This document shows, in pieces, positions 3,967 through 37,985 of a stretch of 47,808 nt of DNA (positions within the stretch are counted from its first letter, which is position 1; the number at the start of each line of letters is the position of its first letter). The stretch lies in the NCBI GenBank assembly GCA_044350705.1, contig JBILHA010000001.1, positions 1 to 47,808 on the forward strand, read 5' to 3'. Origin of the DNA: Candidatus Kapaibacterium sp. (lineage in GTDB: Bacteria; Patescibacteriota; Patescibacteriia; UBA9934). Below the pieces are notes generated by a model. The model ran no database searches. It was not told the DNA's origin and saw only the letters and a list, made by a program, of their open reading frames with translations. Both the position numbers and the translations under genes were made by a program.

Positions 3967-3970
3967 ATTG

Positions 3971-4098
3971 ATGAAACTGCATATATTCGTCAACTTTCGA
4001 CTCACTCCTTGATTGTATCGACGACGTACTATGAGGTACGTCTTGACGATCCAATCGGCGTCGTTCGTCGAAACTTGCCAGAATATCTGCAGTTTCAT
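3971..4098. repeat. 128-nt imperfect palindrome (rod-like hairpin) directly 5' of tRNA-Gly on the minus strand.
   Basis: 3971-3988 ATGAAACTGCATATATTC pairs with 4081-4098 GAATATCTGCAGTTTCAT (18 positions, 1 mismatch). 3991-4001 pairs with 4067-4077 (11 positions, 1 mismatch). The inner arms are also largely complementary, and the apical hairpin is GACGTAC-N-GTACGTC. Confidence 0.7.
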
Positions 4099-4204
4099 GC
4101 GTTCGACGTTTTGAGTCAAAACTTAGCGCAATATATTTCGTTCCGTATTGCTTGTTTCTTGCTCCGATATGAACGACTTGTAACGAAAGAGATGGTACAC
4201 CAGG

Positions 4205-11997: not shown

Positions 11998-13494
<1,497 letters not shown>

Positions 13495-13656: not shown

Positions 13657-13705
13657 TTGAAAAGTGTGTTGCTGTTTTGCTTTGATCTTAGTAGTACAGG
13701 TGCAT

Positions 13706-14722
13706 ATGTTTTTCCGTTTCCTTTTTCTTTTCCCTCTGCTTGCATTTCTTTCTTTTTCTTTTCCCTTGTTTGGCTATGCTGCATTGAGTGGAAATCTTGT
13801 TTCTTGGGAGGGATGGAGAAGCAGGGGAGATGTCGAGATCAGAGAGGAGGAGGGGATGATTATTTTTGATAGCGAGTCGGGGGGCTCCCATTCTGTATTC
13901 CAAGATATTCCCGTTTCTGGGTATGCGGGAAAGTATCTTGTTATTGCGGCCTTTTCTTGGATTGAGGAAGATGCAGGGTATCGTTCTCCTGCTGCATCTC
14001 AAATTTACGGGTCTCTTTATAATGCCCAAGGGATTCACATAGGCATGATTTCTCCTCAGTCTCTTCGGCATAGATTAGTTAAGGGAGGTGAATGGGATGT
14101 CCTTTATGCCACCGTAGCAATTCCTGCTTCCGCGCAGACCCTTAGACTCTTTTTAGAAAGAGAGGGAGGATATCTTGAGGACCGGTTCGGAAGACGAGCG
14201 GCGATGTACGATATTGCGGTACGCGGAGTGAATTCCCTTGCTGAGGGGAGGGCTTATATTCATGATGCTTATTGGGATAGGCTTTCTTTAGGGGATCCAA
14301 GAGGGGAAGAGGGGTATATCAAGGGTCATGAGGTTTTATGTTCCGAAGGGCGACAAGATACACGTATTTCCGCTGGAGTCTCTTCTGAGGTCTATGCAGG
14401 CCGCCAGGAGGGCTTGTGGACCCTTTGGGTGGCAAATGAGGATGCGTGGCTATGGGATAGATGGGGAAAGCAGCAAGAGTTTTTTCAGAGTTCTCGTGCT
14501 CGGGGGGTGGGAAGCCTTTGTATGAAGTCGGGAGATCGTATTCGTATTAATGGTGTTTTTTCTTCGGATTCTTACCTTGTCTTTTCCTCTGAGGGAAGTC
14601 CCGCTGATGTTATTACGGATATTCGTATCGCCGGGGAACGGTACGAGATTGGAGCTCAAGAGGTTTGTACCTGGGATAGTAATGGAATGGGGGGATACGA
14701 TATTCTTTGCGAAGTGCCTTGA
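13706..14722 (+). CDS. Hypothetical secreted protein (338 aa) with an N-terminal signal peptide.
   Basis: MFFRFLFLFPLLAFLSFSFPLFGYAA is signal-like. I chose the ATG at 13706. A candidate promoter (TTGCTG, N17, TAGTAC) ends 8 nt before it. Confidence 0.6.
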   Translation: MFFRFLFLFPLLAFLSFSFPLFGYAALSGNLVSWEGWRSRGDVEIREEEGMIIFDSESGGSHSVFQDIPVSGYAGKYLVIAAFSWIEEDAGYRSPAASQIYGSLYNAQGIHIGMISPQSLRHRLVKGGEWDVLYATVAIPASAQTLRLFLEREGGYLEDRFGRRAAMYDIAVRGVNSLAEGRAYIHDAYWDRLSLGDPRGEEGYIKGHEVLCSEGRQDTRISAGVSSEVYAGRQEGLWTLWVANEDAWLWDRWGKQQEFFQSSRARGVGSLCMKSGDRIRINGVFSSDSYLVFSSEGSPADVITDIRIAGERYEIGAQEVCTWDSNGMGGYDILCEVP

Positions 14723-14832: not shown

Positions 14833-14985
14833 TTACAAATTTGCTACCCAAGTTTGCAAACTGCTGTGTTGAAAGAACTGGGCTCGGCCTCAACGTACAT
14901 TTTGGGTACGTATCGGCCTGCGCCGTTCTTTCTCCTTGCATTTTGCAAACTTAGTAGCAAATTTTCACTCATCGCTGGAAATCAC

Positions 14986-17772: not shown

Positions 17773-18326
17773 CGAAAATTCTTTCTCCACTTTCGCGGGA
17801 TGACATTCGAGAGGAAATTCTTGTTCTGCACTCTCAAGAGATTGAGCATCGTTTAGTTATTCCTGAGGGGGAGCAGCAAACGTTTACTTACCACTATCGT
17901 GTACACGAAAAGGCAACAAGATTTCGTTTACGTATGATGCTCGTAGTAGAGCAGAACGCTTCTCTTTCTTTAGATGTTTCATCGTTTTTAGCCGCGGAGC
18001 AGACCCAGAGTGATATTCGAATATTTCTTGTGCTCAAAGAAGGGAGTAAAGCTGTGGTACGGCAATTCACGCATGCTTCTCATGCAACGAGCGTGGTACA
18101 TGAGGAAATTCGAGGATTGGCTCTGGGGAATTACCGGCAAGCATCTTTTCTTCCCGAGCTTTCTCTTCTCCATGAAGAAGTTGTTGCAACGCATGCGGCG
18201 AGCATTGTGCGCATTTCTGAAAAACAGCTTCGATATTTTCTTTCTCGAGGTCTTTCTCCTGCGGCTGCTGAGCATTGTTTGGTGGAGGCTTTTCTGACCT
18301 CTACGTCATATGGAAATTTATCTTGA
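17769..18326 (+). CDS. sufD: SufD-like Fe-S assembly protein, truncated form (185 aa).
   Basis: It overlaps the sufB stop (ATGA). The C-terminus ATHAASIVRISEKQLRYFLSRGLSPAAAEHCLVEAFL matches the SufB/D C-terminal helix region. Confidence 0.7.
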   Translation: MTKILSPLSRDDIREEILVLHSQEIEHRLVIPEGEQQTFTYHYRVHEKATRFRLRMMLVVEQNASLSLDVSSFLAAEQTQSDIRIFLVLKEGSKAVVRQFTHASHATSVVHEEIRGLALGNYRQASFLPELSLLHEEVVATHAASIVRISEKQLRYFLSRGLSPAAAEHCLVEAFLTSTSYGNLS

Positions 18327-19464
18327 TCATGCAGCAACGACACGTATTGCACCTGAATCGCTTCAGGCCATGATTGCGTTTGAACAGGCGGGCAGAGGAA
18401 ATCCTTTTCGGGGGTTACATGCTGCTGCGGAGCGCGCTACCGAAGCATATGAACAATCTCGCGAGGTCGTTGCACGTTTTTTGGGAGCTCCTGCGGATCA
18501 TATCGTTTTTACCAAGGGGACGACTGAGGGTCTTAATATGCTTGCAAGAGGTTTGGCGGAAACCCTTCAAGAAGGAGATGAGATTATCCTTTCCCTTCTC
18601 GAGCACCATGCGCATTTACTTCCTTGGCGTGCTGTTGCAGAGCAGCGAAAATGCGTGCTGCGGTTTGTTCCTCTCACTCGTGAAGGAGAGTTTGACGTAG
18701 CTGCCTATCGAGCCATGCTTTCCCCTCGTACGAAGGTAGTGGCGGTTACCCATGTTTCCAATGTTTTAGGCACCGTTGTTCCGTTGGAGGAGATCGTTCA
18801 AGGGGCTCGAGAAATGGGTGCGTTTGTCTGTGTTGACGGCGCTCAGGCGGCGGGGCATATGCAGATTGATGTTGTTGCCTTCGGTGTTGATGCGTATGCG
18901 ATGAGCGCACACAAAATGTATGGTCCTCTGGGGATTGGAAGTTTGTACCTTTCCGCGCGTCTTCAGGAGGTACTGCAGCCATTTTTATTAGGAGGAGGCA
19001 TGATTGAAGAGGTACTTGATGACGGATGTCCGGTTTTTGCAGAAGGTGTTCGTAAGTATGAGGCAGGAACGCCAAATGTTACCGGTGCGGTAGGGTTTGC
19101 TGCTGCGTGTACCGTGCTTTCTCCTTCTTTACAGACAATCAAGCAAAAAGAGCAAATGCTCACGAAGATGCTTTGGGAAGGTTTGAGCTCTTTTGCGTCT
19201 GTTACTTTGTACGGTCCTCCGCCGGAGCGAGAGCGACGCGGAGTTATTGCTTTTGCGATAGAGGGGAGACATTCTCATGACGTTGCTCAGGAGTTGAGTC
19301 AGCGCGGCATCGCTCTCCGGGCGGGTTTTCACTGTGCGGCTCCTTTGGCGCGTTGCTTGAATCCTCAAGGGGTCCTTCGTGTGAGTATGGGGAAGGATAC
19401 TTCTGAGGAAGCGTGTAGGGTATTCTTATCTCTTCTTCAGGAAGTGATACGTGAGAACGTGTAA
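18310..19464 (+). CDS. sufS: Cysteine desulfurase (class V aminotransferase, SufS/NifS-type).
   Basis: YLDHAATT, the PLP-lysine motif SAHKMYGPLGIG and the catalytic RAGFHCAAP. Confidence 0.9.
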   Translation: MEIYLDHAATTRIAPESLQAMIAFEQAGRGNPFRGLHAAAERATEAYEQSREVVARFLGAPADHIVFTKGTTEGLNMLARGLAETLQEGDEIILSLLEHHAHLLPWRAVAEQRKCVLRFVPLTREGEFDVAAYRAMLSPRTKVVAVTHVSNVLGTVVPLEEIVQGAREMGAFVCVDGAQAAGHMQIDVVAFGVDAYAMSAHKMYGPLGIGSLYLSARLQEVLQPFLLGGGMIEEVLDDGCPVFAEGVRKYEAGTPNVTGAVGFAAACTVLSPSLQTIKQKEQMLTKMLWEGLSSFASVTLYGPPPERERRGVIAFAIEGRHSHDVAQELSQRGIALRAGFHCAAPLARCLNPQGVLRVSMGKDTSEEACRVFLSLLQEVIRENV

Positions 19465-19470
19465 AAATTA

Positions 19471-19851
19471 TTGGTATACCTTTTGAGCATCTTTATGCTT
19501 TCTCTTTTGCAAGATCATGCACAGTATCCTCGTTTTCGACGAGAGGTATTAGATTTTCCTTTTGTTGGTCATGCTGCAAATCCTTTTTGTGCTGATGCAG
19601 TTGATATTGGTATACGTATTGGGGAGGGAAAGCGGATAGCGGATGCGGGGTTTTCTGGTACCGGATGTGCGCTTTGTGTGGGTGCCTCATCGCTTTTGTG
19701 TGAATATATTCTTGGTAAATCGATTTCTGAACTTGCCCCTTTGCAAAAGGAGTATTTGCAAGGAGAAGAGATTGGACGGATGCGTGAAGGATGTGTCACA
19801 GTGTCGGCAGTTGCGCTTCAGCGCGCCATAGCTCTCTATGCTTCGTTGTAA
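19471..19851 (+). CDS. sufU: SufU/IscU-type Fe-S scaffold (NifU N-terminal-like).
   Basis: NPFCADAVDIGIRI...FSGTGCALCVGASSLLCEYILGK. An alternative start lies at 19495. Confidence 0.8.
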   Translation: MVYLLSIFMLSLLQDHAQYPRFRREVLDFPFVGHAANPFCADAVDIGIRIGEGKRIADAGFSGTGCALCVGASSLLCEYILGKSISELAPLQKEYLQGEEIGRMREGCVTVSAVALQRAIALYASL

Positions 19852-20485
19852 ATCTTTTTCTGGAAAACGTGGTGATCGTCTGATCTTTTCTGAGGTTTCT
19901 TTCTCTGTAGAGCCTGGAGAGCTTTTGTGTATTACGGGTCCAAATGGAGCAGGGAAGAGCACCCTTCTTCAAGCGATTGCAGGTTTCCCCGATATTGCCA
20001 CTACGGGGGAGGTTTTTGACGCGCATGGATCTTTAGCGGGGCTTTCGCTTGAAGAGCGTTTTCGTCGTGGCATGATGTTGACGTTTCAGGAGCCTCCTGC
20101 GCTGCCTGGAGTTTCTTTTCTGACGGTAGCTCGTGAAATGCTTACCGCCCAGACGGGAACACGTCCTGACATCGCTTCTTTATATCGTCTTATCCGAGAA
20201 GTATTTCATCGGCTCCATATTTCAGAGGACTTCATCGAGCGTTCACTTTTTGATGGCTTCTCTGGGGGAGAGAAGAAGCGGGCCGAGCTTGCGCTGCTTC
20301 TTCTTGCACGACCTCGTATTGCGCTTATTGATGAAATTGATGCCGGGCTTGATGCTGAAGGGAGGCTTCTTGTACAGGAGGTGTTTGGTGAGTTCTTAGC
20401 GCAGGGAGCTACGATTCTTTGCGTTACTCACAGTGTAGATTTTCTTGAGCATTTTCCGAAGAAAAAAAGTTTTTCGATTTCATGA
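19838..20485 (+). CDS. sufC: Fe-S cluster assembly ATPase SufC.
   Basis: Walker A GPNGAGKSTLL, signature FSGGEKKR and Walker B ALIDEIDAGLD. It overlaps the sufU end by 14 nt. Confidence 0.9.
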   Translation: MLRCKSFSGKRGDRLIFSEVSFSVEPGELLCITGPNGAGKSTLLQAIAGFPDIATTGEVFDAHGSLAGLSLEERFRRGMMLTFQEPPALPGVSFLTVAREMLTAQTGTRPDIASLYRLIREVFHRLHISEDFIERSLFDGFSGGEKKRAELALLLLARPRIALIDEIDAGLDAEGRLLVQEVFGEFLAQGATILCVTHSVDFLEHFPKKKSFSIS

Positions 20486-20583: not shown

Positions 20584-21189
20584 ATGTCATATCTCATTCC
20601 TACGGTCATTGAAAAAACTTCATACGGTGAACGTGCGTATGATATTTACTCCCGTCTTTTAAAAGATCGCATTATTTTTTTAGGAAGTGCGATTGATGAT
20701 GGCGTGGCAAATGCGGTGATTGCCCAGCTCCTTTTTCTTGAAAGCCAAGATAAAGAGCGTGATATTAAGTTGTACATTAATTCTCCGGGAGGTTCCGTGA
20801 CCGCAGGATTAGCAATTTATGACACCATGCAGCATATTCAGCCTGATGTCTCTACCATCTGTGTGGGTATGGCAGCTTCCATGGGTGCGGTACTTCTTGC
20901 TGCAGGAACTGAAGGAAAGCGTTTTGCTCTTCCGAATTCGGAAATCATGATCCATCAGGTTTTGGGAAGTGGTATCTCGGGTCAGGCAACGGATATTAAT
21001 ATCCATGCTCGACGCATTATGCAGATGAAGGATAGTCTTAATACTATTTTAGCTGAGCATACCCATCAGCCTTTTGCTAAGGTAGCTGAGGATACTGAGC
21101 GCGATCGATTCATGACCGCTAAGGAGGCCCAAAAATACGGATTGGTTGACAAGGTTATTAAGAAGGGAGAAGAGAAGCTTCAGAAGTAG
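20584..21189 (+). CDS. clpP: ATP-dependent Clp protease proteolytic subunit.
   Basis: [27 protein letters not shown], catalytic GMAASMG and IMIHQ. Confidence 0.97.
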
Positions 21190-21222
21190 AAAAAGTGCTC
21201 TTTTTTCAGGGTTACTGCACTG

Positions 21223-21252
21223 TTGACGCCCCCCTCCTTTCTTTGGTATTAT
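21223..21252 (+). promoter_or_regulatory. Candidate promoter in the clpP/vanW convergent spacer.
   Basis: TTGACG (21223-21228), N18 ending in TGG, TATTAT (21247-21252). Confidence 0.4.
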
Positions 21253-21257
21253 TCATT

Positions 21258-21418
21258 GTCACGGATGGCTTTTTAGCCTTTTCCTGGGCGTTTTTTGGAG
21301 GGAACTGCGGTCACGACAAGCATGGGGATACATAATCACCCGTGCTCACTGGATCCGTCTGGTGTGTTACAGGAGATGTATCTTCTTGACCGCAGCTCCC
21401 TCTGAAAAACGTTTTTTA
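21258..21418 (+). ncRNA. Candidate structured small RNA of unknown family. Alternatively it is an elaborate clpP 3' UTR and terminator.
   Basis: A long closing helix pairs 21289-21313 with 21387-21411 (about 24 paired positions) and encloses two hairpins (21320-21345 and 21347-21364). A loop-to-3' complementarity pairs 21326-21333 with 21376-21383. A T-run follows at 21412-21417. Confidence 0.35.
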
Positions 21419-21627
21419 TTTCGGTGCTTTTTTGCCCTCATCGGTCCGGTTGCCTCGTCGTACCGGTAAGTACGCCTCGGCAATCCTCCCTCTTCGGAGC
21501 AAAAAATCCCTCGAAATAAAAAACGTTTTTTCGCTTCTTATTTTCATTTCTCTGTTATTTTTTATCTATACTGATCCAAGTGGCGTCGCGTGCCGAAACT
21601 CGTTGAAAATAAAAAAATCTTTTGAAA

Positions 21628-21661
21628 GAAAAGAATTCTCATTTGTTTGAGAGTTCTTTTC
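21628..21661. terminator. Hairpin terminator after the VanW-like gene; it could act in both directions.
   Basis: GAAAAGAATTCTC-atttgttt-GAGAGTTCTTTTC with flanking T and A runs. Confidence 0.6.
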
Positions 21662-21665
21662 TTTT

Positions 21666-23594
21666 TTATTCAATAACTGGTTCTGCGGGTACGTCTGTTG
21701 TTGTTTCATTTTCCGAGACACTGTCACTGGATGCGACGCCGACGAGACAAATTTGAGGAAGTGAGCGGTAGCTTGAATTGAAGGTTTCGGTTGTTGTGGT
21801 TCCATCTGCCCAGAGAATGTTGTAATCGAATGTGGTGGTAGCTCCCTGATATGCATTTTGGCAACGTCTTACGCCGGGGGCGAGGGAAGTGGTTTCTTTT
21901 ATAATTGTTGCTCCATATCCGGTCCAGCTGAGTACTTCTGGCGGAGTGTAGGATCCTTTGCGCCCATCTGATGTTCCCCAGAAAGAGAAGAAGAGTTCTC
22001 CGGTATCTTCTTTTACTTCTGTAACGAGCATGACGTAGTGTTGAGTATCGTTTTTAATTTTTAGGTCAGGTGAAGGGTCGTAGAGGGTCGCGTCTGTTCC
22101 CGGGAGACCATTTGATGGATCATTATAGTAGGAAACTACGAGAGAGTGGTTTCTGCGCTCAGCGATGTGAAGGCCTGAATTCATTGCTGCACGAAATGTA
22201 GTGGTTCCAATTTGGCAGAGTCCACCGCCAACTTCTGGAATAATCTCATCTCCTTTAATGACGAGCTCAGGGAGATATCCGTCTGATACCGTAAAAGGTT
22301 TTAGTTTTTCAACTAATGAGAGCGTTTCTCCGGGAGGAATGAGGAGGCCATTCAATTTTTCGGCTCCATGACGAATATTTGCGCGACGGTTGGAGGGGGA
22401 TCCTGCGAAGCTGGAATATCCCGTTCCAAGTATTTCTTTTATGCCATAGGTGTTAATGCTTTCGATGGGTATCTCGGGCGCTTTGCGGACCACGGCGATC
22501 GTAACGGGTTCTGTGCTTGTGTCTTCTTTTGCGAATGCTTTGCGCAGGTCTGTAAAAAGCTGATCGTCATTAACGACAAGTCCGTCGCGGCTTGGAACGA
22601 ACTCTGTAACGCGCTCACCTTCTACCGTGAATTTTGCATCTTGGGGGGCAATATCAATATCCGTATGGATTTCCGTGAGAAAGGCGGTCATCGCCTCTGC
22701 CTCCAGAGAGAGTGTAGGTTGTCCCTGTTCATTTTTTTCAGGTTTCAGCCAGATTGCGAGGTTTTTATTTGTTATTTCGTATGAAAAGCTCTCCCCCTGA
22801 TCGTTCGAGAAGGTAAGCGTGTAAGGAGCTTTTTCCACGGCGGTAACTGCCTCTGGGATAAGGTCTTTTGCTTCTTCTGCAGAAATCAACGAAGAGCGTT
22901 CGATAAGTTGAAGATTCAGTGTTTGCAGGGAGAGATCCTGAGCGTCTTTTTTGAGTGTCTCAAAGGCGCTTTGTATATCAATCGTTGATCCGATGACTGC
23001 ATCAACGACTTCAACTTGGGCTTTTCCTTCTTCGGAAATGCTGATGACAAAATCGGTAGGAGTGCCGGGGGATTCTGCTTCAGGGTATGCTTCTCGAATA
23101 GCGTCTGCGATTCTTGTTTCAGAGAAGGTGATTTCTGGTTTTATGTCTGTTTTTCCAAATGTTGCAAACCAAAGAGGTGTGAAATACTTTTGCATGTCAT
23201 TTCCTGAGCGACCAAGCGCGTAGGCGTTGCTTACGAGTTTTCCTACATCTACTTCCGCTAGTTCGTACACGAGATCTGGATCGCTTGCTCCACGGGGCAT
23301 GAGTGCTACGGTTTCGGTTTTTCCGTAGAGAGAAGTTGTGATTCCGGTATCGAGAAAATTATTCACTGCACGTTGAATTTTTTCCGTTGCTTCAGTGACG
23401 GTCATTCCTCCTACGTCAATGCCGGCAATAGATATTCCACCATAAATACGGTCAGCGTAGGCTCTTTGGGCTACTGCTGCGCTTGCCCCAAGCATTCCTG
23501 CAATGACGAGAGTGATCACGAGCGTTATGACAACACCGCGAGGTATTTTTTGCGAGGAATTTTGTTTTTCGGCCTTTTGCTGTTCCTTTTCCAT
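21666..23594 (-). CDS. VanW-family protein with an N-terminal membrane anchor.
   Basis: TM segment VVITLVITLVIAGMLGASAAV. VanW core GETLSLVEKLKPFTVSDGY...GGGLCQIGTTTFRAAMNSGLHIAERRNHS. Confidence 0.85.
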   Translation of the reverse strand: MEKEQQKAEKQNSSQKIPRGVVITLVITLVIAGMLGASAAVAQRAYADRIYGGISIAGIDVGGMTVTEATEKIQRAVNNFLDTGITTSLYGKTETVALMPRGASDPDLVYELAEVDVGKLVSNAYALGRSGNDMQKYFTPLWFATFGKTDIKPEITFSETRIADAIREAYPEAESPGTPTDFVISISEEGKAQVEVVDAVIGSTIDIQSAFETLKKDAQDLSLQTLNLQLIERSSLISAEEAKDLIPEAVTAVEKAPYTLTFSNDQGESFSYEITNKNLAIWLKPEKNEQGQPTLSLEAEAMTAFLTEIHTDIDIAPQDAKFTVEGERVTEFVPSRDGLVVNDDQLFTDLRKAFAKEDTSTEPVTIAVVRKAPEIPIESINTYGIKEILGTGYSSFAGSPSNRRANIRHGAEKLNGLLIPPGETLSLVEKLKPFTVSDGYLPELVIKGDEIIPEVGGGLCQIGTTTFRAAMNSGLHIAERRNHSLVVSYYNDPSNGLPGTDATLYDPSPDLKIKNDTQHYVMLVTEVKEDTGELFFSFWGTSDGRKGSYTPPEVLSWTGYGATIIKETTSLAPGVRRCQNAYQGATTTFDYNILWADGTTTTETFNSSYRSLPQICLVGVASSDSVSENETTTDVPAEPVIE

Positions 23595-23597
23595 ACA

Positions 23598-23990
23598 TTA
23601 CATTCCTTTTGCTACGGTGAGTTTTACCCGTTCTCGGGCCTTTGGGGCTTGAATGGTGAGGATGCCGTTTTTGAGTGCCGCTTCGGTTTCGTCGGTTTTA
23701 ATGCGGCAGGGGAGGATAATCGCTCGAGAAAAGGATCCCCAGAAGCATTCGCTGTAGTGCATCGTAGCCTGTGCGGGAAGATTTTCTCCGTGACGTGTGC
23801 CTCGAATAGAAATCATATCGTCGGTGATATGAATATCTAATTCTTTTTCGGTTATTCCCGCAATGGCAGCGCGGACAATGATCTCTGTAGGCGTTTCTGC
23901 AACGTCTACTGCGAGCTGTCCTTCCTTATGGATGCTCCAGGGATACTCTGCCTCTTGATGAAGCAGGGGAGATGATTGCGCGAATGCCAT
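23598..23990 (-). CDS. Hsp20/alpha-crystallin small heat-shock protein.
   Basis: Alpha-crystallin domain LAVDVAETPTEIIVRAAIAGI...FSRAIILP...AALKNGILTIQAPK. It lies 3 nt upstream of the vanW-like gene. Confidence 0.88.
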   Translation of the reverse strand: MAFAQSSPLLHQEAEYPWSIHKEGQLAVDVAETPTEIIVRAAIAGITEKELDIHITDDMISIRGTRHGENLPAQATMHYSECFWGSFSRAIILPCRIKTDETEAALKNGILTIQAPKARERVKLTVAKGM

Positions 23991-37190: not shown

Positions 37191-37985
37191 CTACGGACGG
37201 ATTTGGAGGTTTTTTTCCTCTTTTTTCCGCCAGAGGTCGAGGAGCGTTGCCCTCATTTTTTCGGCGGGAATGATGGTTCCATTCTCCGCGAATAATGCGG
37301 TGACGTCGCTCCATTCGACTTCTAAGGTCTTGGGCCCGCTCCCGAAGGTGAGATCGAGGATGCGTACACTTCGGTTTTGCACGAGCAGGCCTTTGAGGAG
37401 CGATTCGACGCCTCCTGAACGAGGAACGCAGAGCGTGGTGAGCTTCGCGTTGGGGAATTTTGCTTGATCTCTCCTAATGGCCGCCTTTGAGGGGCGGTGG
37501 GCATCAGGAAAGATAAGCACCGATTCCTCAAGTTCGGTCACGCTCATGCCGAGGATGACCTTGGCTCTTTCTCCCTCTTCCCGGCTAATGAAAACCCCGC
37601 GACCCATGAGGTAGAGCGGTCCTCCTACGAAGATCCCCATCACTCCGCGGAGATTTTCTCTTTTGCTCACGATGGAGGGGTGTAATCCCCACTGCGCGAG
37701 TACTCCCATGAGTGCGGGAGTGTCCGCGAAGGCGGGATGGTTGCAGATGAGGACGGTGACTCCCTCGTAAGGAGGAGGATGCTCAGCGGGAAGGGTGAGC
37801 TTTCTTTTGAGGATGGCCAGATGCCCGATTCTCAGAAGAAGGGTGCCCCAGAGGCCGGGAACTGCTTGTGCGATACGACGGCCTGTAGGAAATATGAGGC
37901 CGACCATGCCACAGAGGAGCGCAAAGCTCCCCAAAGTTCCGGTCACGCTCATGCCGAGGACGAGTGCGAAGAAATTTGCGAACAT
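37191..37985 (-). CDS. plsC: Lysophospholipid (1-acyl-sn-glycerol-3-phosphate) acyltransferase family protein.
   Basis: N-terminal TM, then the NHxxxxD block CNHPAFADT and an FP(D/E)xxR block IFPDAHR. Confidence 0.55.
   Translation of the reverse strand: MFANFFALVLGMSVTGTLGSFALLCGMVGLIFPTGRRIAQAVPGLWGTLLLRIGHLAILKRKLTLPAEHPPPYEGVTVLICNHPAFADTPALMGVLAQWGLHPSIVSKRENLRGVMGIFVGGPLYLMGRGVFISREEGERAKVILGMSVTELEESVLIFPDAHRPSKAAIRRDQAKFPNAKLTTLCVPRSGGVESLLKGLLVQNRSVRILDLTFGSGPKTLEVEWSDVTALFAENGTIIPAEKMRATLLDLWRKKEEKNLQIRP

Follow-up and report, generated by a model that had tools for sequence, protein, structure and literature searches.

A probable rod-shaped RNA gene conserved across a class of Patescibacteria, and a repeated hairpin beside it, in the spacer between clpP and vanW

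Introduction

The bacterial 6S RNA (ssrS, RF00013) is a single-copy, largely double-stranded rod in which a central unpaired stretch lies between two helical arms, and it is transcribed from a strong promoter of its own. The signal recognition particle (SRP) RNA of bacteria, or 4.5S RNA, is a hairpin of ~110-130 nucleotides (nt) with a conserved asymmetric internal loop, the long strand of which is on the 5' side. In Y RNAs the 5' and 3' ends pair into a long stem with a conserved bulged helix close to its top, and the RNA ends in a U-run. In antisense-controlling riboswitch layouts, a promoter, a structured RNA and a terminator converge on a protein gene from its 3' side; examples are the S-box antisense RNA of the ubiG operon in Clostridium and the B12 riboswitch with AspocR in Listeria. 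Each of these systems resembles in part an element, referred to here as E1, in the spacer between clpP and a vanW-like gene of Candidatus Kapaibacterium sp. (Bacteria; Patescibacteriota; Patescibacteriia; UBA9934). The DNA analysed, referred to below as the window, is 47,808 nt long and corresponds to positions 1 to 47,808 of the forward strand of contig JBILHA010000001.1 (assembly GCA_044350705.1).

Patescibacteria represent a large share of bacterial diversity; they have tiny genomes, almost all are uncultured, and their RNA biology is little known. Comparison of the 910-kb source genome, which consists of two contigs (C1 and C2), with itself dissects the 476-nt spacer (between the stop ends at 21189 and 21666) into parts: positions 21287-21417, E1, are unique in their own genome, while positions 21403-21530, referred to as E2, are a repeated element. 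The spacer is built of several unrelated parts, and as a whole its folding far exceeds that of shuffled sequences on both strands (z about -9). A sequence-only reading of the window had claimed that the spacer encodes a separate structured RNA of ~160 nt, with a promoter and a terminator at its two ends and no dependence on either flanking gene. Conservation, covariation, promoters and T-runs now agree with that core claim, sequence and structure are both conserved in relatives, and E1 is very probably a genuine, independently transcribed structured RNA gene.

Structure and covariation of E1

The E1 RNA body (21287..21411, plus strand) is predicted to be an unbranched rod, as supported by covariation and by a 107-bit match to R1, a covariance model of E1. 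At its base is P1, a closing helix of 24-25 base pairs (bp) formed by 21290-21313 / 21387-21410, plus the pair C21289-G21411. P1 is followed by a 10-nt bulge, CGACAAGCAU, at 21314-21323, which lies opposite a single nucleotide, U21386. Beyond the bulge are P2 (21324-21333 / 21376-21385; GGGG/CUUC, with two G.U pairs), P3 (21339-21343 / 21369-21373) and P4 (21345-21353 / 21358-21366), which is capped by the loop UCCG (21354-21357), all on the plus strand. The minimum free energy (MFE) of the fold of 21255-21420 is -74.8 kcal/mol (z = -7.5), a value equalled by none of 200 shuffled sequences. The MFE fold also contains a small, species-specific 5' leader hairpin at 21260..21286 (plus strand), a stretch that is missing from 29 aligned relatives.

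The alignment of those 29 relatives, which were found by BLAST, contains two invariant blocks, CACGACAAGCAUGGGG and AUCUUCUUG, while the rest varies freely; the bulge CGACAAGCAU is unchanged in 29 of 29. Two larger sets were used to assess covariation, namely A2, with 92 distinct homologous sequences, and A5, with 31 class members found by R1 and not by motif. RNAalifold predicted 36 pairs from A2, 28 of them with double changes. When the rod was imposed on A2 (21 pairs in P1, 10 in P2, 5 in P3 and 9 in P4), 86.8% of cells were paired, as compared to 41-48% with the partners slid, and the covariation score was 0.615, as compared to 0.13-0.16; none of 500 shuffles reached the observed values, and double changes were seen in 35 of the 45 pairs. 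The corresponding pairing on A5 was 90.3%, versus 42-49% when slid. G.U cells far outnumber A.C cells, by 612 to 144 in A2 and by 200 to 35 in A5, indicating that the plus strand is the RNA strand. These compensatory changes demonstrate that the predicted rod, P1/bulge/P2/P3/P4, is maintained across a whole class of Patescibacteria.

The bulge and its immediate frame stand out from this background. All ten bulge letters are unchanged in 31 of the 31 class members found by the covariance model. The pairs that frame the bulge are invariant or nearly so, with C-G and A-U on one side and G-C and G.U on the other; in one of the 31, the A-U pair that closes the bulge has become C-G by changes on both sides. 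P2 begins G-C, G.U, G.U, G-C in A2, and the tip loops of P4 in the same alignment are variable, being of UNCG or GNRA type.

These results alter the interior of the structure that had been drawn from the window alone. The closing helix proposed there (21289-21313 / 21387-21411, followed by T6 at 21412-21417) is present and covaries as P1. The inner fold is not three hairpins in a multiloop; on the 92 homologues it is one unbranched rod. Both of the inner hairpins that had been named exist in the sequence: CACTGGA-tccg-TCTGGTG is the conserved P4, whereas GCATGGG/CCCGTGC is not conserved, since in A2 this hairpin and the third MFE hairpin have 48.6% of cells paired, equal to shuffled or slid controls, and no double changes. 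The complementarity of GGATACAT and ATGTATCT was correctly noticed and is conserved with covariation, but it forms a true helix, P2, rather than the suggested pseudoknot or alternative fold.

Transcription unit

A putative sigma-70-type promoter lies upstream of the rod at 21223..21252 on the plus strand, with a -35 element TTGACG (21223-21228), an 18-nt spacer, and an extended -10 element TGg-TATTAT (21244-21252). This site, present as the sequence-only reading had stated, has 10 of 12 matches plus the TG, and no other promoter-like site occurs on the two strands of 21100-21760. A single site is expected from shuffled sequences as well (mean 0.8), so only comparative data give the promoter meaning. 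Among 90 distinct homologous loci, 53 have a strict TTGACN-N16-19-TANNNT match 28-79 nt upstream of the bulge motif, as compared to 2 of 180 control windows, and 43 of those 53 also have the extended -10 TGn.

At the other end, a T6 run read from the sequence at 21412..21417 (plus strand) directly follows P1. Together, P1 and T6 have the form of an intrinsic (Rho-independent) terminator for the 3' end of E1, which is not a full account of E1. A run of at least four T occurs 15-35 nt past TCTTCTTG, i.e. just beyond P1, in 39 of the 90 loci; in another 28 the T-run is 36-66 nt past TCTTCTTG, often after a separate hairpin, and in 23 none was found. Transcription of E1 would begin near 21259, giving an RNA from ~21259 to 21412-21417 of about 155 nt, with the species-specific 5' mini-hairpin included. 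The distance between the invariant blocks takes each length from 71 to 76 nt, plus 79, among the matches listed; because this spacing covers all residues modulo 3, no reading frame is kept in E1.

Distribution of E1

A BLAST comparison of the spacer with 60 relatives found the E1 part once each in 18 of 18 genomes of the genus, and the 5' core of E1 in most of the family and order. The contig of a 97%-identical strain has zero changes in 21264-21475, while the flanks differ. A pattern based on the two blocks was found in at least 119 species in a genome collection. Among the matches listed, 80 loci were sorted by name: 36 have Patescibacteria-type names (Uhr-, Kerfeld-, Magasanik- and Komeilibacteria, Parcubacteria, and others), 39 are in third-party assemblies titled “uncultured Gammaproteobacteria bacterium”, an unchecked label, and 5 have other or unspecific names. 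We take the named candidate phyla to belong to the GTDB class ABY1. A search with R1 found E1 in 108 of 121 evenly drawn genomes of the class (102 of the 110 of high quality). Two adjacent copies were seen in three class genomes only (G270:C3:71877-72125, G252:C2:276464-276802 and G310:C6:3966-4252); otherwise there is one copy.

The same model was applied to an even sample of 151 genomes from the phylum, where it matched the source genome, one more of the order, all five of the other class genomes sampled, and one outgroup; whole-genome RNA searches score first-filter candidates only, so that outside the class the result means “not found” rather than “absent”. The outgroup match (G101:C3:80487-80610), weak with an E value of 1e-4, is rod-like as well; its bulge is shorter than that of E1, and the CUUCUUG strand is retained. 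A ClpB-type AAA+ gene converges on it, and no other match was seen outside the class, among about 140 genomes. This rod may be a distant relative of E1. Nor was an E1-like RNA found in the DNA that follows clpP in 27 genomes from other classes.

A candidate protein-docking RNA

E1 appears to be undescribed, and no known housekeeping RNA matches it. The stable rod, invariant bulge, covarying helices, near-universal single copy and consensus promoter, when taken together, suggest a fixed site that is presented to a conserved partner. Positions 21223-21417 (plus strand) may thus be the gene for a stable non-coding rod RNA of about 130-155 nt, the bulge of which docks a protein, although we give this proposal somewhat less than an even chance. 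According to this model, the RNA would act in trans as a housekeeping-type molecule. The invariant one-sided bulge and the flanking G.U-containing helix would be the docking site of a conserved protein, with the long variable helices serving only as stable scaffold and terminator, and the RNA would end at the base of P1 in the T-run or at a separate terminator. A conserved protein partner is, tentatively, the most likely reading of E1. The properties of E1 are housekeeping-like: it is mostly single copy, is found in about nine-tenths of the sampled class genomes, has a consensus promoter, and carries a bulge that is invariant across more than 80 families. It offers a concrete and easily synthesised bait toward a new RNA-protein partnership.

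Several points weigh against this model. Protein docking is deduced solely from the pattern of conservation, i.e. the invariant bulge, the conserved G.U pairs and the free variation elsewhere, and the expression, ends and stability of E1 are likewise predictions from sequence. Thirteen of the 121 class genomes gave no match. Of the 90 loci examined for signals, 37 lack a strict promoter match, and the 23 noted above lack a T-run by the set criteria. The alignments have their own biases: 62 of the 92 rows in A2 came via a pattern that fixes both blocks, so that block invariance in those rows is by construction, and the fitting of A5 to the model biases that alignment toward the structure. Lastly, the strong synteny with clpP and vanW, described below, could mean a local, cis-linked role and not a general role in trans.

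Known RNA families and a 6S-like alternative

Rfam 15 gave no credible match to the window (gathering threshold), to the spacer (permissive threshold) or to 20 homologous loci, and none of its families matches E1. The best permissive matches in the spacer were implausible eukaryotic families on an A/U-rich hairpin, with E values of at least 0.1. No hallmarks of SRP RNA, RNase P RNA, transfer-messenger RNA (tmRNA) or 6S RNA had been recognized by eye, and the model searches agree. The tmRNA, RNase P RNA and 5S ribosomal RNA (rRNA) genes are located elsewhere, at C2:84505-84919, C2:255337-255760 and C2:292440-292548, respectively. E1 was rejected as a tmRNA because Infernal locates that gene next to smpB, and as RNase P RNA or 5S rRNA because both genes are elsewhere and neither model matches the spacer. 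The tmRNA gene, on the minus strand beside smpB (C2:84044-84472), scores 98 bits with the Rfam model; ARAGORN reported none.

SRP RNA resembles E1 in shape, given the similar length and the asymmetric loop with its long strand on the 5' side. The SRP RNA models RF00169 and RF01854 have no match in the spacer or genome (E<=10), or in any of 61 relatives (E<=1), and a loose regular expression for the SRP loop gave only scattered matches in coding DNA. The Ffh M domain, PF02978, was not found above the Pfam cut-off in 61 genomes of the order (one sub-threshold match) or in 151 of the phylum; the SRP GTPase, PF00448, gave two sub-threshold P-loop matches only and none above the cut-off; and the DT[AS]GR motif is absent from long open reading frames (ORFs). 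One published study states that many candidate phyla radiation (CPR) bacteria are without SRP subunits (PMC8080830). SRP loss of this kind appears to be already known. E1 was rejected as an SRP RNA since no RNA model matches it and the partner protein Ffh, the receptor FtsY and the SRP GTPase domain were not found. Moreover, the conserved loop of E1 is ~25 bp from the tip and not next to a GNRA loop, and its tip loops are variable. E1 was also rejected as a Y RNA, because the TROVE/Ro60 domain (PF05731) was found in none of 21 genomes and there is no Rfam match.

E1 also resembles 6S RNA in overall design, which raises the alternative that E1 is an abundant rod that binds RNA polymerase holoenzyme as a mimic of a melted promoter, with the bulge strand templating a product RNA. 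This is attractive because E1 is near-universal, single-copy and mostly double-stranded, with a central unpaired stretch that separates two helical arms, each of about 25 bp; its promoter has a consensus extended -10 element, and the RNA is probably abundant, while the genome has no canonical RF00013 RNA and no other 6S candidate, so that the role is vacant. However, 6S RNA is not universal, and hence a vacant role proves nothing. The RF00013 model has no match in the spacer, and so none in E1, at E<=10, nor in the whole genome, nor in the 20 homologous loci at E<=0.5. The central bubble of 6S RNA is large and two-sided, whereas the unpaired region of E1 is one-sided, with 10 nt opposite 1 nt. 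E1 is also shorter, at about 125-155 nt as compared to the 187 positions of the Rfam model, and its bulge sequence is invariant. 6S RNAs are longer than E1, and their bubbles are less invariant in sequence than the bulge of E1. The likeness to a polymerase-binding RNA is predicted only, and we consider a 6S-like role unlikely.

Gene neighbourhood and a possible local role

Neighbouring genes were counted at 78 loci found by the pattern. At 34 of them ClpP lies upstream of E1 on the same strand, and in any position it adjoins E1 at 38; for VanW the counts are 44 downstream and convergent, and 50 in any position. Upstream ClpP and convergent VanW occur together in 24 loci, and neither gene is present in 17. 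E1 lies downstream of vanW on the same strand in 6 loci, and it is inverted within the spacer in 3 of 27 loci bounded by both genes, which supports its being a transcription unit of its own. Whatever its identity, the downstream neighbour is convergent in 59 of the 75 loci that have a downstream ORF; the 16 same-strand downstream ORFs belong to no common family, except for one group of 3. The surroundings of E1, when considered with the ClpB neighbour of the outgroup match, are rich in protein quality-control genes.

This synteny forms the basis of a second alternative, in which E1 is local: either an antisense-type regulator whose promoter is directed at the 3' end of vanW and whose terminator sets the amount of antisense RNA, or else a common 3' end or bidirectional terminator by which the mRNAs of clpP and vanW are stabilised. 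The frequency of the two neighbours fits such a role, as do the proximity of the vanW stop codon, which in some loci is within 23-40 nt of the conserved 3' block that forms the base of P1, the terminator formed by P1 and the T-run, and the weak outgroup relative beside a ClpB-type gene. Nevertheless, 28 of the 78 loci have no adjoining VanW, and the orientation is the same as that of vanW in the 6 loci already mentioned. P1, with 24-25 bp, is far too stable for switching; a plain terminator requires neither an invariant bulge nor a consensus promoter of its own; and for the start regions of clpP, vanW and hsp20, the predicted duplexes do not surpass those of shuffled sequences. The antisense riboswitch layouts have the same order of parts, but E1 differs from them in having no aptamer family match, a very long and stable terminator helix, and a neighbour that is not constant. 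A local role is on balance quite unlikely.

Other explanations of E1

The bulge could instead be the seed of a small RNA that base-pairs with targets in trans. Such RNAs usually expose a single-stranded seed on a stable scaffold with a terminator behind it, and the accessible, invariant 10 nt of the bulge have this arrangement. The exact complement of the bulge, however, occurs twice in the genome, which is the chance level, with both sites inside ORFs, and it is absent from the 16S gene. Invariance across more than 80 families would demand equally invariant targets, and none were seen, making this explanation improbable. Still less probable is a ligand-sensing or catalytic RNA in which the bulge and the tandem G.U pairs form a pocket or metal site. 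Aptamer and ribozyme cores typically contain invariant unpaired nucleotides bordered, as in E1, by conserved G.U pairs, but no Rfam riboswitch or ribozyme model matches, the same-strand downstream genes are not conserved, and an unbranched rod whose only bulge is one-sided makes a poor pocket. The proposal that E1 is no RNA gene at all, but a DNA palindrome, mobile-element relic or small protein gene, as might be suggested by a long inverted repeat that adjoins genuine repeat elements and by a 26-codon frame from an invariant ATG in the source genome, is close to refuted by its single copy at a conserved locus throughout most of the class, the excess of G.U over A.C that marks one strand as selected, the variation in block spacing across all three frames, and substitutions that are compensatory rather than codon-like.

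E2 and a family of putative stable-RNA leader hairpins

E2 is a 128-nt, B-type hairpin repeat at 21403..21530 on the minus strand (nhmmer E 1.6e-37), which is also matched at 21405-21529 (36.3 bits, E 1.5e-7) by R2, a covariance model of hairpin subfamily A. E2 overlaps and abuts the 3' end of E1 in antisense orientation. A 97%-identical copy at C2:242687-242796 is likewise antisense against the 3' end of a gene for tRNA-Ile(UAU), a transfer RNA (tRNA) that is uncommon in bacteria. That gene (C2:242807-242883, minus strand, anticodon UAU, as identified by ARAGORN) has a leader hairpin upstream and the E2-type hairpin at its 3' end. E2 is missing from the E1 spacer of the 29 aligned relatives and is kept in the contig of the 97%-identical strain; contigs from four DNA runs showed no joint that removes E1 or E2. 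By this distribution E2 is a recent addition, and it explains much of the length of the spacer. The segment at 21507-21531 does repeat the 3' strand of the E1 closing helix, as had been pointed out, but it is the 3' arm of E2 rather than an alternative pairing partner for E1. At most, E2 adds a back-up bidirectional terminator. Next to it, at 21556..21627 on the minus strand, is a half copy of a C-type hairpin of the same family, likewise a later addition, which blastn matched to arms of the copies at C2:255241-255301 (E 1.7e-6), C1:195376-195421 (E 1.2e-5), C1:373105-373145 and C2:299803-299842.

The family to which E2 belongs has about 10 full-length copies plus fragments in the source genome, as identified by nhmmer. 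Copies in the window are at 3967-4100, 14833-14967 and 21403-21530, all on the minus strand, and examples elsewhere are C2:15648-15779, C2:84919-85052 and C2:255233-255360. When nhmmer and ARAGORN results were combined, hairpins of ~125-135 nt were found 0-20 nt upstream of, and co-oriented with, 16 genes: 14 of the 42 tRNA genes, the tmRNA gene and the RNase P RNA gene. Some of the hairpins lie between the tRNAs of one cluster. R2 matches 30 of 41 genomes of the order, with 1-34 matches in each and 19 in the source genome; the other 11 genomes have none. Eleven loci from as many other genomes were examined, and at every one the R2 match ends 0-4 nt before a co-oriented tRNA gene.

Alignment A3 resolves the family into three subfamilies that have in common a central CGUAC-loop-GUACG hairpin, and in two of the three, two conserved internal-loop motifs lie on opposite strands. 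The outermost stems differ between copies yet stay complementary. Folding is better for the sense than for the antisense strand in 16 of the 17 upstream copies. Among ten subfamily-A paralogues, 95.9% of cells are paired, as compared to 33-38% when slid, with double changes in 22 of 38 pairs and an excess of G.U over A.C of 26 to 3. No promoter was seen inside the 3' arm of the leader hairpins, while in several cases a promoter-like site, some of them read by eye, lies upstream of the hairpin. Within the order, these hairpins would normally be transcribed as 5' leaders immediately preceding the genes for tRNAs, tmRNA and RNase P RNA.

Two kinds of described element invite comparison with this family. 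The first is the palindromic, MITE-like (miniature inverted-repeat transposable element) repeats of the REP/BIME, Correia and RPE types, which are also multi-copy intergenic hairpins with several subfamilies and variable copy number. The E2 family shares with MITE and REP elements the presence of many similar copies and a patchy copy number among relatives. Unlike those repeats, its members adjoin the 5' ends of stable-RNA genes within 0-20 nt, show compensatory pairing, and have more G.U than A.C cells. No terminal direct repeats or link to a transposase were noticed, although no systematic search was made. The second kind is the long processing stems and leaders of rRNA operons. The hairpins might be leaders that RNase P releases, signals for processing or anti-termination, or mobile repeats with a preference for stable-RNA genes. 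Hairpins with compensatory pairing at the 5' ends of stable-RNA genes suggest that the transcription or processing of stable RNAs in this lineage has a feature not recognised before.

The protein-docking model for E1 can be extended to include these hairpins. E1 might be the RNA subunit of an undescribed ribonucleoprotein that is near-universal in an ultra-small class without SRP, with the E2-type hairpins being new leader RNAs released from stable-RNA precursors rather than junk. We regard this combined proposal as speculative and, as a whole, rather doubtful. A 6S-analogue polymerase regulator with a one-sided bubble would fit as the ribonucleoprotein, as would a factor tied to the neighbouring Clp proteolysis genes. 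Literature listings on CPR structured RNAs, clpP/vanW intergenic RNAs and tRNA leader hairpins yielded no description of E1 or of the hairpin family.

Other features of the spacer and the window

The genes on either side of the spacer end where the sequence-only reading had placed their ends and converge on it, and Pfam confirms their identities. The upstream, same-strand neighbour of E1 is clpP (20584..21189, plus strand), a 201-amino-acid (aa) ORF with a CLP_protease match (E 6.3e-85). The convergent neighbour is the vanW-like gene (21666..23594, minus strand), a 642-aa ORF with VanW (E 1.7e-34) and PG_binding_4 matches. The spacer had been described as far longer than other intergenic regions in the window; it is indeed the longest gap under a crude gene model, but not by far, as the next gaps are 422, 307 and 303 nt. 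The 422-nt gap, at 37315-37736, lies between divergent ORFs. In 27 related loci bounded by both clpP and vanW, the spacer ranges from 183 to 644 nt, with a median of 331.

Directly after the vanW stop codon is E3 (21625..21664, minus strand), an A/U-rich hairpin of 18 bp that forms a perfect hairpin in the folds of both strands and is detected as an inverted-repeat self-match. E3 is a likely terminator of vanW, predicted from its fold; its G-C pairs are too few for a simple terminator scan to count it. In the contig of the 97%-identical strain, changes in E3 are clustered in both arms (21628, 21636, 21643-21647, 21661, 21664 and 21665).

Beyond the two flanking genes, a class-V aminotransferase and an ABC ATPase are encoded ahead of clpP, at 18310-20485 (plus strand), and an Hsp20 gene comes after vanW at 23598-23990 (minus strand). 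The 16S rRNA gene of the window (11998-13494, plus strand) is followed by an ORF at 13664-14722 and by minus-strand tRNAs, with no 23S gene. The 5S rRNA gene sits on the other contig, and the rRNA genes are apparently unlinked.

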